A DNA stretch of 64,000 bases, from the sequence record NC_019500.1; one strand, 5' to 3'. The position numbers and the translations under genes were made by a program. This DNA comes from Escherichia phage Bp7. Below are positions 2,859-63,882 of this stretch, one piece after another; the first letter of the stretch is position 1; the number at the start of each line of letters is the position of its first letter. Below the pieces are notes generated by a model. It made no database searches. It was not told where the DNA came from and worked only from the letters and a program-made list of their open reading frames with translations.

Positions 2859-3191
2859 ATGAAAACTGTAAATCTGAATGCATCTGTTAAAGCTAAATGT
2901 TTCAACGGTGAATATCAAGAAACCATGTGGGTCCTGACTGCAGTTGAAGGTGATATCATCGAAGTTGAAACAACTGAAGGTATGGGTACTGATTTTACAT
3001 TCACCATCGAGCTTCACAACTTCTTTACAGGTTGGATTTATGAACTGAAAACTGTAATTACTGGTCGTATTGAAGAAAACAAAAATGGTGAATTCTATTA
3101 TGTTAATGCCCGTACACGTGCTGAACGTCTGATTGCTCAGATGAAAAAAGTTGGTAAACTTGATATGAAAAATTGGAATGTTGTGAAATAA
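2859..3191 (+). CDS. hypothetical early protein
   Basis: 110-aa ORF directly behind repeated leader. Confidence 0.6.
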   Translation: MKTVNLNASVKAKCFNGEYQETMWVLTAVEGDIIEVETTEGMGTDFTFTIELHNFFTGWIYELKTVITGRIEENKNGEFYYVNARTRAERLIAQMKKVGKLDMKNWNVVK

Positions 3192-3194
3192 ATG

Positions 3195-3264
3195 TTTTAC
3201 TTTGGTACAGGTTGTGTTATTATAGACCTGTACCAAATAATACGAAAACAAACTGGAGAATAAA
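3195..3264 (+). promoter_or_regulatory. early promoter and conserved leader/RBS cassette (copy B)
   Basis: About 44 nt identical to copy A except one base, ending in GGAGAATAAAATG. Confidence 0.5.
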
Positions 3265-3630
3265 ATGAACTACATCAACTTCGAACGTAAATATGTTTCT
3301 AACGGTATCGCTGGTTCTTCTGAAGTTATTTGCCTGTGGAAACACAACAACGGCGCGGTGTGCGAAATCGAACAGTGCATGACTCCTAACTACGTTTATA
3401 TGCGCTTTGAAAATGGTATTACGGTTTCAATCACAATGGAAGGTTCTACTTTTAAAATCGCTTTAGATGATGATTTCCGTCAACGTGATTTAGGTACCCA
3501 TCCTTGCTGGAACGGTTCTAATCGTAAGCTTCTGGTTAAAACCTGGATTCGTCACATCCTGAGCAACCGAGCTAAACCTGAACACCTGGAAGCAATCTTT
3601 GATGTAGTTCTGAATGAATTCGATATCTAA
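3265..3630 (+). CDS. hypothetical early protein
   Basis: 121-aa ORF behind leader copy B; not a paralog of the 2859 ORF. Confidence 0.6.
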   Translation: MNYINFERKYVSNGIAGSSEVICLWKHNNGAVCEIEQCMTPNYVYMRFENGITVSITMEGSTFKIALDDDFRQRDLGTHPCWNGSNRKLLVKTWIRHILSNRAKPEHLEAIFDVVLNEFDI

Positions 3631-20109: not shown

Positions 20110-20337
20110 TTAGAAATCTTCCTCTTCCTCGTCGTCCATCGACTCCAATTCAGCTCTCTTACCAGCCAATGCATCACGCACGCTAATATCATCCGAATCA
20201 CGAAGTTCGGCTTCCTTACTACGAGTTTTGTAATACTTTTCCAATTCCTTCAGACCATCCATAGTCTGACAAGAACCAATTTTAGCCATGAAGCTTTCAA
20301 TAGATGCTTCCTGAATAACTTCTTTAAAGGTTTTCAT
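20110..20337 (-). CDS. UvsW.1-like small acidic protein
   Basis: 75 aa with acidic tail DDEEEEDF; position relative to uvsW. Confidence 0.55.
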   Translation of the reverse strand: MKTFKEVIQEASIESFMAKIGSCQTMDGLKELEKYYKTRSKEAELRDSDDISVRDALAGKRAELESMDDEEEEDF

Positions 20338-21116
20338 AATATTTCCTCGAAAAATTTGGTAACCATTTTACCGTAATGCACATTAGGATAACCGGCTTTA
20401 ATGGCTTCTTTTGTAAATTTACCAACTTTAAGCTTTCCTGTATTTATCCAAAGCTCTTTAAGCTCATCATACATTAACCAGTGTGGATATTTCTTAGCCA
20501 AAGTAGCTTGCCAATTTTTAGAATGGTCCTCAGACCTAAACGATTTCTTTACACCTTTATTGGCTTTGCCAGCTTTTGAACACGTTTCATAATCTCCGGC
20601 TTTAATAGGTGTAAATCCTTTCATTGCTTTAGACCTTTTGGCTATGGTCTCTTTGGATTGCTTGGAGCCTTTATTTTTGGTCCAAGCCTTTTCTAAAGCT
20701 TTTAATTTGGCTTCTGTTAATCCAACTTTAGCCATAGCTTTTCGGTGTATTTCTCTTCGTTCATCAGTCCATTCATAAGAACCGTTTGTATTACCAATCA
20801 TGGCTTCGCTTATTAATCTAGAAGCATTTTCTTTTAAAATGGAAATAGACCTAGAGCTTATCTCATTTAATCTTTTGCCACATGTCATACCAAATGCGGC
20901 ACGCCATAATTTTCCACCTTGAGCTTTAGCCAAGATTATATGGCCCAAAATATGTTCCCTAATAGTCAATGCAACTAAATTGTTAGGGTCATCGGAACCA
21001 CCTATCGACTTAGGAATAATATGATGAATTTCGATTTTACAGGGCGCAGTAGCTTTGGTCCATCCTCTGGACCTAGCATTCTCTATTAAATCATCGTAAA
21101 TTTTCTGATAATTCAA
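20334..21116 (-). CDS. HNH homing endonuclease (free-standing, Mob-like)
   Basis: HNH motif IEIHHIIPKSIGGSDDPNNLVALTIREH; apparent TTG start overlapping uvsW stop and TGA stop overlapping uvsW.1 ATG. Confidence 0.8.
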   Translation of the reverse strand: MNYQKIYDDLIENARSRGWTKATAPCKIEIHHIIPKSIGGSDDPNNLVALTIREHILGHIILAKAQGGKLWRAAFGMTCGKRLNEISSRSISILKENASRLISEAMIGNTNGSYEWTDERREIHRKAMAKVGLTEAKLKALEKAWTKNKGSKQSKETIAKRSKAMKGFTPIKAGDYETCSKAGKANKGVKKSFRSEDHSKNWQATLAKKYPHWLMYDELKELWINTGKLKVGKFTKEAIKAGYPNVHYGKMVTKFFEEIL

Positions 21117-25663: not shown

Positions 25664-26944
25664 TTATTTTTCTAAAGGCGGTAATTTTACGCCGAGATAA
25701 GAACTCAATTGACTTTGATTAGCCATTTTGTCCATATCAGAACCATCAATAATGCGGGCTTCTTTATCGTCCTTAGCGACGGTATAAGGGTTTGCAGTCA
25801 ATGCATAACGAGCAAGCAATGCTACTGTAGGTTGTAAGCTTTCCGGGTCAACAATAACCTTAAATTCACCAACTGAAGTATCACCTTCTTCGTCAACCAC
25901 ATTCAAACCTTCCGTATAAGGCGCATAATATAAAGATGCGACCGTCTGTCCTTCACCCATCTGGGCATTTACACCAACAATAACATAATCACATGGACTA
26001 TTCATATCAGCATAAAGTGGTAGGCCATTCTTTAATATACCATAAGCCAATTCGTCCTGGTCTTCCTTTTTCTCAACCCAACCAGAGGCGGCGAGAATAG
26101 CAGCACAACGAGAACTAGCTACTGCATAAGTCCCGGCAAAAGAAGTCTGTCGTTGGACGGCAGAGTTCATCTCACACATATAATAATATAATGTGCGAGC
26201 ACGGTCCTGGGCATTATCGTAGCGAGGGTTGGTAAGGTCTAATACACCCTTTTCAGAAACACCCTGGACTTTAAAACGAGAGCTCACGGTAATTAATGAC
26301 TGTAATACATCCTTATTAATTTCTTCTGCCATTTGAATGCCTAGCAGATTTTCAACGAAATTAGGAGCATTAAACCCGTTAGATTCTAGGTCTTGGGCTA
26401 ATTCGACTGTCAATGAAGTTTTCAGTTTACGTGATTTAACTTCAGATTGCCATTTGTCGATGCGGAATCCGGTTTCAGCAATTTCAGGATGGCCTTGTTC
26501 AAATTTAGAAGTAATAGCAGCATCCGACACCATACGGATATGGCCGGCTGCCACTGCTTCAGAAATAACTTCGCTGAGGTTGGTTTCTGTGGTTCCGGCG
26601 AAAGGAGATGCTTCTAGAACTTTAAACACTACGCTTTCAAACTGGAACATATCACCGACCGCATAAGCTGTAGATGAATCAGTAAATTCTGGAATATTTT
26701 CACGTTCCGTCATACCAATCTGGCCCGCAAATGTTGCTCCACCAAGATAAGTCATTTTGTCGTCAGGGTTCAGTACACGTACCCCATACAGAGCAGCAAC
26801 CGGTTGATTTGTTTTTTGTTCAGCAACTAGGGCTTTAAAGATTCGTTTATTAGTTGCTTGGGTGTATGAAAGAAGAGCAGGACGGCCAACCGAGCTGGCA
26901 GCCGTCAATGTGGATTCTTTAATTAGGTCTACAATCTTAGACAT
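25664..26944 (-). CDS. gp24-like head vertex protein, divergent paralog
   Basis: 426 aa; shares LQSLITVS, VELAQDLESNGF, LARYALTANPYTVAKDDKEARIIDGSDMDKMA with adjacent gp24 at roughly half identity. Confidence 0.85.
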   Translation of the reverse strand: MSKIVDLIKESTLTAASSVGRPALLSYTQATNKRIFKALVAEQKTNQPVAALYGVRVLNPDDKMTYLGGATFAGQIGMTERENIPEFTDSSTAYAVGDMFQFESVVFKVLEASPFAGTTETNLSEVISEAVAAGHIRMVSDAAITSKFEQGHPEIAETGFRIDKWQSEVKSRKLKTSLTVELAQDLESNGFNAPNFVENLLGIQMAEEINKDVLQSLITVSSRFKVQGVSEKGVLDLTNPRYDNAQDRARTLYYYMCEMNSAVQRQTSFAGTYAVASSRCAAILAASGWVEKKEDQDELAYGILKNGLPLYADMNSPCDYVIVGVNAQMGEGQTVASLYYAPYTEGLNVVDEEGDTSVGEFKVIVDPESLQPTVALLARYALTANPYTVAKDDKEARIIDGSDMDKMANQSQLSSYLGVKLPPLEK

Positions 26945-28227
26945 TAATCAGCCTCGTAAATAATTGCCGGAAGTTTAACGCCAACCAGATAAGACATATT
27001 GCTCTGTCCAGCCATTAAATCCATATTGGTTGCATCGATAACACGAGCTTCTTTATCGTCTTTAGCCACGGTGTACGGGTTAGCTGATAGTGCATAACGA
27101 ACCATCAGAGAAATAGAAGGTTGTAATGAATCCGGGTCAACAATAACCTTATAAGCACCGACGTGTTCTTGGTCATCTAAATCTAAGCCTTCGGTATAGG
27201 GAGCGTAGAAAATAGAACCGACAACTTCATTACCGCCGTAATTCTCTTTAACACCAACGGTAACATAATCTAATGGACTGTTAACGTCACAAAACAGAGG
27301 CAGACCATTCAACAAATATCCGTATGCAGTTTCCGGAAGCCAATTATTATCTTCGGGTTTATGTTTTAACCAGCCAGAACCTGCAAGCATTGCAGCCACA
27401 CGACTTGAAGCCACAACAAACGTGCCAGAATAAGAAGTAGTTTTCTGGATTTCAGAATTCATCTCACAAACGAGTTCATAAAGTTTACGTGCAGATTCAG
27501 GAGCACTGTCATAAGACAAATCGATGATGCCGTTATCAGATACACCAGTAACTTTATAACGTTTGGATACGGTTATTAGAGATTGCAGAACGTCTTTATT
27601 AATTTCATCTGCCATTACTGTAGCCAAGAGGTCTTCTAAGAACGCCGGCGCGTCAAAGCCATTTGATTCCATATCCTGCGCTAATTCTACAGTCAAAGCC
27701 GTCTTCAATTTACGGGTCTTAACCGGAGCATTCCATTTATTAACCTGGAATACGGCATCAGAGATTTCTACATCACTCGCTTCAAATTTAGTGGTATGGG
27801 CAGCATCAGGAACCAGACGACATGTTAATGACACTAAACCTTCTTGAAGAGCATCAGCCAATTCTGTGGCGCTAGTGGACGCGAGTGGGCTTGCTTTAAG
27901 AGCCTTATAAACCACATTCTGATACTTGAAATATTCACCCTGAGCAATCGCCTGGGCCTTATCTGTGAGTTCTGGGATAGTTTCACGGTCTTTAGAACCA
28001 ACTTCACCACCATAAGAGGCACCTGTCTGGAAACTAAATTCATTATCAGGGGTAAGATATTTGACACCATACAGTGCAGCAATAGGCTGGCTAGTACGTT
28101 GTTCGGCGATAATATCACGGTAAATCAATTTGGTTGTAGCACGGGTCAAAGCAACAAGATTAGGGCGACCCAATGAGTTGCTGGAAGTAGTTGTTGACTC
28201 GCGCAGTAATTCGTTAATCTTTGCCAT
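26944..28227 (-). CDS. 24: head vertex protein gp24
   Basis: 427 aa; MAKINELLRESTTT... matches remembered T4 gp24. Confidence 0.9.
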   Translation of the reverse strand: MAKINELLRESTTTSSNSLGRPNLVALTRATTKLIYRDIIAEQRTSQPIAALYGVKYLTPDNEFSFQTGASYGGEVGSKDRETIPELTDKAQAIAQGEYFKYQNVVYKALKASPLASTSATELADALQEGLVSLTCRLVPDAAHTTKFEASDVEISDAVFQVNKWNAPVKTRKLKTALTVELAQDMESNGFDAPAFLEDLLATVMADEINKDVLQSLITVSKRYKVTGVSDNGIIDLSYDSAPESARKLYELVCEMNSEIQKTTSYSGTFVVASSRVAAMLAGSGWLKHKPEDNNWLPETAYGYLLNGLPLFCDVNSPLDYVTVGVKENYGGNEVVGSIFYAPYTEGLDLDDQEHVGAYKVIVDPDSLQPSISLMVRYALSANPYTVAKDDKEARVIDATNMDLMAGQSNMSYLVGVKLPAIIYEAD

Positions 28228-30225: not shown

Positions 30226-31041
30226 TTAAGAAATTCGTGATGCTGCGATTGCAGACAGGTCCGCGAAGGACAGGGTAGGCTTAGCGCCTTTTTCTTCAAC
30301 TGCTTCTGAAATGTAATTCAGTGCCGCAGCATCGTCTACATTTTTATTTATAGCGGCTTCGGTGATTGGGTTTTCAACGTCAGACTGACCTTTAACCATT
30401 TCAACAATAGCGCCAATTTTTTTACCGAATGCATCGGAATAATCCATGCCTTCTACCAGAGAACTAACTTTTTCTTTTTGAGATTCAGTCAGGTCTTTAG
30501 TTGCTTCCGTAACAGCAACTTCACGCTGCACGTAATTAATATACGCATCGCGCATACCAACTTCTTCGAACAGACGAGCGGTTTCATCTTTCTGCTCTTG
30601 GAGCTCTTCTTCCATTTCAGCAACAACATCTACTGCTTCTTCTGGAACAACCACATTGTGTTCAACAAACAGTTCTTTCATACCCATCAACATGGATTCG
30701 AACAGTTCGGCTTTAATACCTTTATCAACAGCCAGCTGGTTTTCAGCCATCCATTCTTTAGCAACGTGGTCAAGGAAACGACCGGCAGCTTCTTGGATTT
30801 TCTTATCGGCTTTTTCTTCAGCTTCTTCTTTATTTTTCTCGACTTCTTCTTCCGCTTTTTCAGCGATTTTAGCGATGTGAGATTCAGCCAGTTTCACGGC
30901 GTGTTGCTTGACGGTAGCTTCGAATACAGTGCCGAAAGTTTCTTTTGCTTCCGGAGAAATATTAACTGATTCGAAAATACTATCAAGAGCAACGGAAGCA
31001 TCAATATTCTGTGCTTCGGCGATCAGTTGTTCTTTAAGCAT
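30226..31041 (-). CDS. 22: prohead core scaffold protein
   Basis: 271 aa, acidic coiled-coil composition; synteny. Confidence 0.88.
   Translation of the reverse strand: MLKEQLIAEAQNIDASVALDSIFESVNISPEAKETFGTVFEATVKQHAVKLAESHIAKIAEKAEEEVEKNKEEAEEKADKKIQEAAGRFLDHVAKEWMAENQLAVDKGIKAELFESMLMGMKELFVEHNVVVPEEAVDVVAEMEEELQEQKDETARLFEEVGMRDAYINYVQREVAVTEATKDLTESQKEKVSSLVEGMDYSDAFGKKIGAIVEMVKGQSDVENPITEAAINKNVDDAAALNYISEAVEEKGAKPTLSFADLSAIAASRIS
30346..30353 (-). promoter_or_regulatory. late promoter TATAAATA for gene 23, inside the end of gene 22
   Basis: tatttata on plus strand. Confidence 0.4.
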
Positions 31042-31071: not shown

Positions 31072-31707
31072 TTATAACGCTTTTTTCATGGCCTCTGCGA
31101 GAGCCATAAAGGCGTCATCGGCACTGGTATCGGTTTCTACCGTTTGTGATTCTGTAATTTGCTTTGGAGTTACATAAGCATCAGGAGCAGATGGTCCCCA
31201 TACTGCATCAACACCGACGGTTAATTTATAACCTTCGTTTACACGCTTATATCCTTTGTTGGTTTCGGTTAAAGAACCAAGACCGCGAGAACTAACACCA
31301 GGAACCCAGCCAGCTCGGATATTTGCAGCTAGTTTATCACCCGGGCCATGGTCACCTTCGATGATACGTGCACGTCCATAAACATCATTACCTTTCCACC
31401 ACATATCTTCAATAATGATAGCAGCTTGCATAGGGTCGACGTTAGCACGAGGTGGATGGTTTAATTCTCCTAAAGCTTGTTTAGTAGCAACTTGTTCTGC
31501 CATGTAATCGGCAACGGCTTTTTCCAAAATAGGTTTTGGGTAAAGGCGTTTATTACGGTTAACTACCTCTGCTTGCATGAAAATGCCTTCTATATAAAGG
31601 CCGGGAGCAAGACCAGAATTTTTTCCATCATGAGATTCCAGCATTGGAACCCCATCGATAATTTCACCTGGTTGTCCCCAATGTTCGATGAGCAATTCAG
31701 GTTTCAT
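31072..31707 (-). CDS. 21: prohead core protease
   Basis: 211 aa; synteny and size as T4 gp21. Confidence 0.9.
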   Translation of the reverse strand: MKPELLIEHWGQPGEIIDGVPMLESHDGKNSGLAPGLYIEGIFMQAEVVNRNKRLYPKPILEKAVADYMAEQVATKQALGELNHPPRANVDPMQAAIIIEDMWWKGNDVYGRARIIEGDHGPGDKLAANIRAGWVPGVSSRGLGSLTETNKGYKRVNEGYKLTVGVDAVWGPSAPDAYVTPKQITESQTVETDTSADDAFMALAEAMKKAL

Positions 31708-34659: not shown

Positions 34660-35151
34660 TTATTCCCACCAGTCAATAGCAAATGTGCTTTCAAATGTTT
34701 CTACCTCGTTATTCGAGTCCCAGTCCATCTGGACTTCACCAACGTTAGTAGGCCATAAGCCGTAAATTGTAACTTCTTTGGTCACAGTCTTGCCGTCACG
34801 ATGGAACTGGCGAACTACTGCTTGTTTCTTATATTCTGCAGGTGCTGCACCGGTAATTTCATTGGTCATACCGTGACAGAGATTCTGCCAATCGACAATT
34901 GCTTGACGGGTGTCATGTGCATCATCGTTATAAATGGTAATTGTCCAATCATCAAACGTACGGTCACCAGCTACGTTAATTTTACGGTTCATGTAGCCAA
35001 CCGGTACTTTTTCTACAATGCCTGCCGGCATAGGGGCTGCTTTACATTTAAAGCTAAAGTTTTTACCGAGAAATGGAATTTCCACTTCGAAAAGGTTAGG
35101 GCGTGCAAAGTCACCTGACTCGAAGGCCCTAGTGATATCGGTCAACTCCAT
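34660..35151 (-). CDS. 19: tail tube protein
   Basis: 163 aa; matches remembered T4 gp19 (RAFESGDFARPNLF). Confidence 0.95.
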   Translation of the reverse strand: MELTDITRAFESGDFARPNLFEVEIPFLGKNFSFKCKAAPMPAGIVEKVPVGYMNRKINVAGDRTFDDWTITIYNDDAHDTRQAIVDWQNLCHGMTNEITGAAPAEYKKQAVVRQFHRDGKTVTKEVTIYGLWPTNVGEVQMDWDSNNEVETFESTFAIDWWE

Positions 35152-35188
35152 TGGCGACCTCCATCTAAGTTAAATTCTTGATAAGTTT

Positions 35189-35860
35189 TCATGATAGTTT
35201 TCCATTTGGTTGTTTTGATTCAATCATATTTATAAGAGTTTTTAAGCTCATCCCACAGCCATCTGATTTGGAAAGATTTTCTTCCCACGGAATAATTTGC
35301 AAGTTACAAATATGGCCTATATGTTCTGCGGGTATTTTATTATCATAACCAAATTTCTTAGATATTATATGGTCTAATTGATAAGCACCTTTGACTCCGC
35401 ACTTGCCTATTTTAGTAAAATTCTTCATTTTACTTATTTCATTTCTATATTTATACTGATGACGCTTGACATCCATACAATATTTATGATATTTTTTCTT
35501 ATCAATCCAGTGTTCTTTAGATTTGAGACCTTTACCTGTTCTATTTTTGGAAATTTTAGGCCCTTTGGTTTTACGGATTTTTATGCCTTCATCAGAATTC
35601 CAATATTCTTTTCTTGTTTCTGAATAGACTTCCCAGCGATGTTCTTTACAGAACTTAGAATTTGTTTCATTAAGACGTCCTTTTGTTACAGTATAATAAG
35701 TGCCACATTTATCACATTTACATGTAACAGCAATTTTTCCAGGACAATCTTCTAATTTTATTAAATGAGAGCTTCCACTTTTAACTTGATATCCGAGATT
35801 TTTAAAAGCAGAAACATTGCGATTCGTTATAGGTATTTCAAATAGAGTATTAGTAATCAT
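35189..35860 (-). CDS. HNH homing endonuclease with N-terminal Cys cluster
   Basis: QLDHIISKKFGYDNKIPAEHIGHICNLQIIPWEENLSKS; late-promoter-like TATAAATA at 35866-35873. Confidence 0.75.
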   Translation of the reverse strand: MITNTLFEIPITNRNVSAFKNLGYQVKSGSSHLIKLEDCPGKIAVTCKCDKCGTYYTVTKGRLNETNSKFCKEHRWEVYSETRKEYWNSDEGIKIRKTKGPKISKNRTGKGLKSKEHWIDKKKYHKYCMDVKRHQYKYRNEISKMKNFTKIGKCGVKGAYQLDHIISKKFGYDNKIPAEHIGHICNLQIIPWEENLSKSDGCGMSLKTLINMIESKQPNGKLS

Positions 35861-60107: not shown

Positions 60108-60130
60108 TATAAATAATATTAATATTTATA
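60108..60130. promoter_or_regulatory. back-to-back late promoters (TATAAATA each strand) for 53 and 4
   Basis: gagTATAAATAatattaatatttataagg. Confidence 0.5.
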
Positions 60131-62849: not shown

Positions 62850-63494
<645 letters not shown>

Positions 63495-63569
63495 AGAATA
63501 TAAAGAACCCTTGAAGCTCGACTGGGCTGAAGACCTAAAATAATTTAAACCATTCAAACGAAATCAAAA

Positions 63570-63848
63570 ATGAAAACCTATCAAGAATTTAGTAAATCTC
63601 AAGCAGTTGCTCCTATCACTGAAGCTAGTGTTATGAGTGAAGTTATAGCTCTGAACAAAGGCCGCGAAGGTAAACCAGTTATAGGCCTTAATGGTGAAGA
63701 GCTTAAAGGCACTGTTTATCTGGGTGATGGTTATCACGCCAAAAAAGATGGCGGAAGCATTGTTATTTCGCCAGCTCAAGAATCTTCTGTCATGAAAACT
63801 GTTTACATTGCTACTAAACACTTTGATATTTTGAAAAAAGCTCTTTAA
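63570..63848 (+). CDS. internal head protein (IP-family, capsid targeting sequence)
   Basis: N-terminal MKTYQEF matches the T4 IP capsid-targeting leader; I-T-E at residues 16-18 fits the gp21 cleavage consensus. Confidence 0.6.
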   Translation: MKTYQEFSKSQAVAPITEASVMSEVIALNKGREGKPVIGLNGEELKGTVYLGDGYHAKKDGGSIVISPAQESSVMKTVYIATKHFDILKKAL

Positions 63849-63853
63849 AGTTG

Positions 63854-63882
63854 TTTACAACAGGGTTGTAGTGTGATACTAT
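63854..63882 (+). promoter_or_regulatory. early promoter TTTACA-N17-TACTAT
   Basis: Near-copy of the 28271 promoter. Confidence 0.5.

Follow-up and report, generated by a model that had tools for sequence, protein, structure and literature searches.

ipI of Escherichia phage Bp7, a predicted ortholog of T4 internal protein I and putative inhibitor of a GmrSD-family enzyme

On the basis of sequence homology, the open reading frame (ORF) at 63570..63848 (+) of Escherichia phage Bp7 is ipI of a T-even phage of the JS98 type (genus Dhakavirus), its T4 ortholog being the gene for internal protein I (IPI). The window, which is the whole stretch of DNA that was analysed, comprises 64,000 nucleotides of sequence record NC_019500.1. 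By analogy with T4 the product would act as IPI does: it would be packaged, cut by gp21, injected, and would inhibit a GmrSD-family type IV enzyme, a reading to which we give a probability of roughly 0.85. All of the sequence-level features of the IPI family that were testable are present, namely the model score, homology to T4 IpI, the leader, the cleavage motif, the locus, and the protease and scaffold genes. The gene is already known; it has been deposited and annotated, and is an ordinary member of its family.

Family identity of the ipI product

The precursor and the predicted mature protein are located as follows.

63570..63848 (+): ipI, encoding the precursor of internal head protein I (92 aa and a stop codon), an ATG-initiated ORF assigned by Pfam, PHROG and T4 homology
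63624..63845 (+): predicted mature IPI*-like protein of 74 aa (7.9 kDa, pI 9.0), from the Pfam and 2JUB alignments

The full 92-residue translation is MKTYQEFSKSQAVAPITEASVMSEVIALNKGREGKPVIGLNGEELKGTVYLGDGYHAKKDGGSIVISPAQESSVMKTVYIATKHFDILKKAL, and there is no in-frame start codon further 5' of the ATG at 63570. The translation matches Pfam PF11634 (IPI_T4, "Nuclease inhibitor from bacteriophage T4") with a score of 94.5 bits (E=3.8e-27), where the gathering score is 25 bits, and residues 19-92 align to profile positions 1-75 of 76. The entire protein is matched by PHROG 4363, "internal virion protein" (E=6e-42), and residues 20-91 align to residues 2-74 of PDB chain 2JUB, which is T4 IPI* (E=3.2e-23). 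In a tblastn search of phage genomes T4 ipI (AF158101 73591-73878) was found with 58.5% identity at 100% query coverage; the search gave matches in 291 records, 288 of which span at least 80% of the query. Considered separately, the mature regions of the Bp7 product and T4 IPI* are 59% identical, and the leaders of the Bp7 product and T4 IPI agree at 10 of 19 aligned positions. An earlier note on this DNA, made from the sequence alone, had described the mature part as unrelated to the T4 internal proteins, which these matches show to be wrong.

That note had also proposed the protein as novel. The 92-aa NCBI entry that is 100% identical is "internal head protein [Escherichia phage Bp7]", so with the PF11634 and PHROG 4363 assignments and a T4 homolog at the same locus the proposal does not hold. 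The closest known relatives, together with the Bp7 entry itself, are the internal head proteins of the Dhakavirus phages dhabil, dhaeg and CLB_P2, of which the dhabil protein (QHR72546.1, annotated "internal head protein") is 97.8% identical to the ipI product. The Bp7 protein resembles T4 IPI in its family, in its position between 57B and trna.4, in its leader architecture and aligned ITE↓A motif, and in the size and basic charge of the mature protein, and differs from it in approximately 40% of the mature residues. The computed values for the mature product are 74 aa and pI 8.98, compared with 76 aa, 8.0 kDa and pI 9.02 for T4 IPI*.

Three core motifs, NKGREGK, YLGDG and IV(I/V)SPA(Q/E)E, show little or no variation across the family. 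As a control for the predicted fold we used a model, built in parallel, of a protein identical to 2JUB in its mature part, and the order of secondary structure elements (helix, three strands, helix) is the same in the ipI model and the control model. Fold searches with the ipI model did not retrieve 2JUB, and the control model with the 2JUB mature sequence likewise missed it, so that the miss is not informative about the fold; the sequence evidence holds independently of it. At the level of DNA, ipI and the dhabil allele are 88.9% identical and differ in 30 codons, 28 of them synonymous and 2 non-synonymous; judged from these codon differences, strong purifying selection is acting on ipI.

Leader and predicted gp21 cleavage

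The N-terminal part of the precursor can be divided as below, and two further genes in the window encode the proteins with which the leader would be expected to interact.

63570..63623 (+): predicted leader or capsid-targeting propeptide, residues 1-18 (MKTYQEFSKSQAVAPITE), aligned to the T4 IPI propeptide MKTFKEFTSTTTPVSTITE
63615..63623 (+): predicted gp21 cleavage motif I16-T17-E18, with the cut before A19, by alignment with the T4 site
31072..31707 (-): gp21 prohead protease, the expected leader-cutting enzyme (Pfam Peptidase_S77, E=6.4e-103)
30226..31041 (-): gp22 scaffolding core protein, with which the leader is expected to dock (Pfam T4_CASP, E=1.3e-89)

The earlier note had taken the N-terminal MKTYQEF to be a T4 internal-protein leader, and this reading stands, since T4 IPII and IPIII begin with the same seven residues (MKTYQEFIAEA...). 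The similarity is also significant: when the window was searched with a degenerate 21-nt pattern, allowing one mismatch, the leader pattern MK[TS]x[QK]EF occurred 3 times, compared with 0.00 expected in shuffled windows. By this count the resemblance of the ipI leader is not due to chance. T4 IPI itself begins MKTFKEF, so that the Bp7 leader has the IPII/IPIII form at its start and is one residue shorter than that of IPI.

In T4 the N-terminal propeptides of the internal proteins (10-19 residues) are capsid-targeting sequences (CTS) that guide the proteins into the scaffolding core, and are cleaved off by the gp21 prohead protease (PMC9026906). The targeting determinants of the CTS lie mainly at residues 4 and 7, in the N-terminal part, with the processing determinants at the cleavage end (PMC9026906). 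The internal proteins also co-purify with gp22 (reviewed in PMC9026906). Mature T4 IPI*, the product of gp21 cleavage, consists of residues 20-95 (PMC12409352), so that in ...STITE↓ATLTSEV the T4 cut follows ITE. ITEA is invariant in a three-way alignment of the Bp7, dhabil and T4 proteins, and given the position of the T4 cut we predict that the ipI product is cut after E18. ITE at residues 16-18 is the sole [LI]xE motif anywhere in the protein, and all 8 family members compared share E18, inside a conserved [IL]-[TN]-E-[AS] motif. The suggestion that I-T-E at 16-18 is the prohead protease site therefore agrees with the alignment, in which it is the equivalent of the known T4 IPI site. In the AF2 model of the ipI product the pLDDT is below 50 at residues 9-15. 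The leader, the T4-aligned ITE↓A and the existing annotation together support the view that ipI encodes an internal head protein whose leader targets it to the capsid.

The identity of the first seven residues does not extend to membership of the IPII or IPIII families, which we rejected. The leader of T4 IPII and IPIII has 10 residues (MKTYQEFIAE) and is cut at IAE↓A, whereas that of the ipI product has 18 residues and a predicted cut at ITE↓A. By global alignment the mature ipI product is 18% identical to IPII and 11% identical to IPIII, with scores at or below zero, so that the mature regions are non-homologous and only the seven-residue leader is common. The same observations, a start identical to IPII and IPIII rather than IPI and a mature part unrelated to either, could be taken to favor a new family of internal proteins that has only the T4 leader in common and is directed against some other type of host defence. 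This is extremely improbable, because the homology of the mature part to T4 IPI is clear, the gene occupies the locus of T4 ipI and its product is already annotated, and the matches to Pfam IPI_T4, to 2JUB and, by tblastn, to T4 ipI refute it.

Besides gp21 and gp22, gp23 is also encoded in the window. Tandem genes for gp24-like vertex proteins of 426 and 427 aa are found at 25664-26944 (-) and 26944-28227 (-), and both proteins match Pfam Gp23 at approximately E=1e-96 to 1e-98. Gene 24 is single in T4.

Two other ORFs with leader-like starts were considered as internal proteins and rejected. The first, at 35142-35192 (-), is a stub of 16 codons (MKTYQEFNLDGGRQWS, followed by a stop) whose first 21 nt, read from 35192 (-), are one base off the start of ipI. 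It is located just ahead of gene 19 (34660-35151 -) and overlaps by ATGA the stop of an inserted gene, lying between genes 18 and 19, that encodes a 223-aa ORF (35189-35860 -). The product of the inserted gene belongs to PHROG 5104 and has HNH-like motifs by eye, with no match in Pfam. From its sequence the 16-codon ORF looks like a stray copy of an internal-protein leader beside the inserted gene. The second, at 20110-20337 (-), is a 75-aa ORF starting MKTFKEVIQEAS, which resembles a capsid-targeting leader with a cleavage site of the [LI]xE↓A type. It was identified as a UvsW.1 homolog (Pfam PF11637, E=2.5e-24; PHROG 1143), and follows an HNH homing endonuclease (20334-21116 -) with an ATGA overlap.

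Proposed function and target

T4 IPI* is injected with the DNA, and the GmrSD-family type IV enzymes that are its targets cut DNA containing glucosylated hydroxymethylcytosine (hmC). From T4, by homology, we infer the packaging, cleavage, injection and target of the ipI product. The capsid-targeting leader would carry the 92-aa precursor into the core of the assembling prohead, where the gp21 protease would cleave after I16-T17-E18. Hundreds of copies of the resulting basic protein of 74 aa would remain in the head until injected together with the DNA. Once inside the host, the protein would inhibit a GmrSD-family type IV restriction endonuclease that might otherwise cleave the hydroxymethylcytosine-based modified DNA of the phage.

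The T4 head contains approximately 360 copies of IPI* (PMC9026906). T4 Ip1 inhibits the GmrSD of CT596, and each of Ip1, Ip2 and Ip3 acts against a single GmrSD variant, without cross-protection (PMC12373910). Purified IPI* also inhibits BrxU in vitro (PMC12409352). The presence of genes for the hmC pathway in Dhakavirus genomes (PMC12115623) suggests that Bp7 would face the same kind of restriction threat. The idea that the protein targets a different host defence is unsupported, as the homology points to the target class of T4 IPI*, the GmrSD-family type IV enzymes.

While the class of target can be predicted from homology, the exact enzyme may differ, given the difference of approximately 40% from mature T4 IPI* and the specificity of IPI* among GmrSD homologs. 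It is possible, although rather unlikely, that the ipI product is a packaged and injected IPI-family protein with shifted specificity, blocking a GmrSD variant beyond the range of T4 IPI*, for example a UTI89-type enzyme or one directed at another hmC sugar, such as the sugar modification carried by Dhakavirus DNA. This is a refinement of the IPI-ortholog explanation, with the same mechanism. The identity of just 59% in the mature region is consistent with it, as is the strict specificity of Ip1, Ip2 and Ip3 for single variants (PMC12373910), and T4 IPI* is active against the enzyme of CT596 and inactive against that of UTI89 (PMC6024577). Four differing residues of RB69 IPI have been discussed as possibly relevant (PMC6024577), and the ip locus is polymorphic within Dhakavirus. 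Against a shift stands the near-invariance in the family of NKGREGK, YLGDG and IV(I/V)SPA(Q/E)E. If specificity had shifted, Bp7 and T4 would provide a natural pair of homologous inhibitors with which to map the interface between IPI* and GmrSD; no structure of an IPI*-type inhibitor bound to a GmrSD enzyme is yet available (PMC12409352). For the IPI ortholog itself the value is comparative, as IPI alleles at approximately 50-70% identity are suited to studying the specificity of GmrSD inhibition.

The ip locus and its expression

The locus of ipI is defined by its 5' neighbor, the gene 57B/acb1.

63087..63543 (+): 57B/acb1, frameshifted (Pfam Acb1, E=1.2e-51; synteny with T4, dhabil and JS98)

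The gene order 1 (gp1 dNMP kinase), 57A, 57B/acb1, ipI, trna.4 matches that of T4 and dhabil, and the order in the neighborhood of ipI is likewise that of JS98. The trna.4 homolog 3' of ipI extends past the end of the window. T4 ipII and ipIII differ from ipI in occupying a separate locus, near e and denV. At 63484-63488, within 57B/acb1, Bp7 has five consecutive T, one more than dhabil and JS98. The extra T shifts the frame of acb1 (anti-CBASS), giving a stop at 63494 and a product of 135 aa as compared with 151 aa, and the lost C-terminus of Acb1 (17 residues) can be read in the next frame to the TAA at 63541-63543. The extra T may be a homopolymer sequencing error; if it is not, Acb1 is truly truncated.

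The content of the slot between 57B and trna.4 varies among these phages. In Bp7 it holds only ipI, while in dhabil it holds a CTS-bearing ORF of 69 aa (extract 2213-2422) as well as ipI. In JS98 there are two ORFs with CTS-type leaders (extract 3025-3234 and 3314-3607), without an IPI homolog: one of 69 aa starting MKSYKEFLTEA and one of 97 aa starting MKTYQEFIKES. ORFs of these two types have no Pfam match, and their PHROGs (23867 and 27873) are of unknown function. They have the slot and a CTS-like leader in common with Bp7 ipI, but their mature parts are unrelated to it, and as candidate internal proteins they fit the idea in the earlier note better than ipI does. That ip loci are polymorphic among T-even phages has long been known (Repoila et al. 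1994, as cited in PMC12373910; also PMC9026906), and the differences between Bp7, dhabil and JS98 agree with this. The polymorphic locus in Dhakavirus offers further natural material for the study of GmrSD-inhibition specificity.

Two sites with similarity to T4 promoters are relevant to the expression of ipI.

63854..63882 (+): early-promoter-like site in the interval from ipI to the trna.4 homolog, by sequence pattern (TTTACA and, after 17 nt, TACTAT with TG)
60108..60115 (+): closest plus-strand match to the T4 late-promoter consensus TATAAATA 5' of ipI, ahead of gene 4

No T4 late-promoter consensus is found directly 5' of ipI, the nearest on the plus strand being 3.4 kb away at 60108, and the late expression of ipI would therefore probably be by read-through along 4-2-3-1-57A-57B-ipI. 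In T4, early-promoter-like elements are present on both sides of ipI (extract 2438-2470 and 2805-2840), and dhabil and JS98 have such an element 5' of their ip genes. Directly 5' of Bp7 ipI the early-promoter/hairpin element is absent, unlike in T4 and dhabil, and only the downstream copy is found. The Shine-Dalgarno-like sequence of Bp7 ipI is weak (ACGAAA; TGGAAA in dhabil). The level of ipI expression is uncertain because of this weak sequence and the absence of the upstream element.

Compared with dhabil, Bp7 is without approximately 260 bp, comprising the 69-aa ORF and the promoter-like element, and the junction is near the start of ipI. Together with the frameshift in adjoining 57B and the distance to the closest plus-strand late-promoter consensus, this could suggest that ipI is a poorly expressed or decaying copy, in which deletion of the upstream module took the promoter and weakened the ribosome-binding site so that little protein would be made. 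We regard this as very unlikely: the ipI ORF is intact, the excess of synonymous differences (28 versus 2) points to strong purifying selection, and T4 late genes are commonly read through, with the genes 5' of ipI all on the same strand.

The element itself, GTTTACA followed after approximately 15 nt by TGATACTAT, is conserved on the flanks of the ip genes of T4, dhabil and JS98, and in T4 the copies are followed by an inverted repeat that was noted by eye. Flanking repeats of this kind could mediate the gain and loss of modules at the ip locus.
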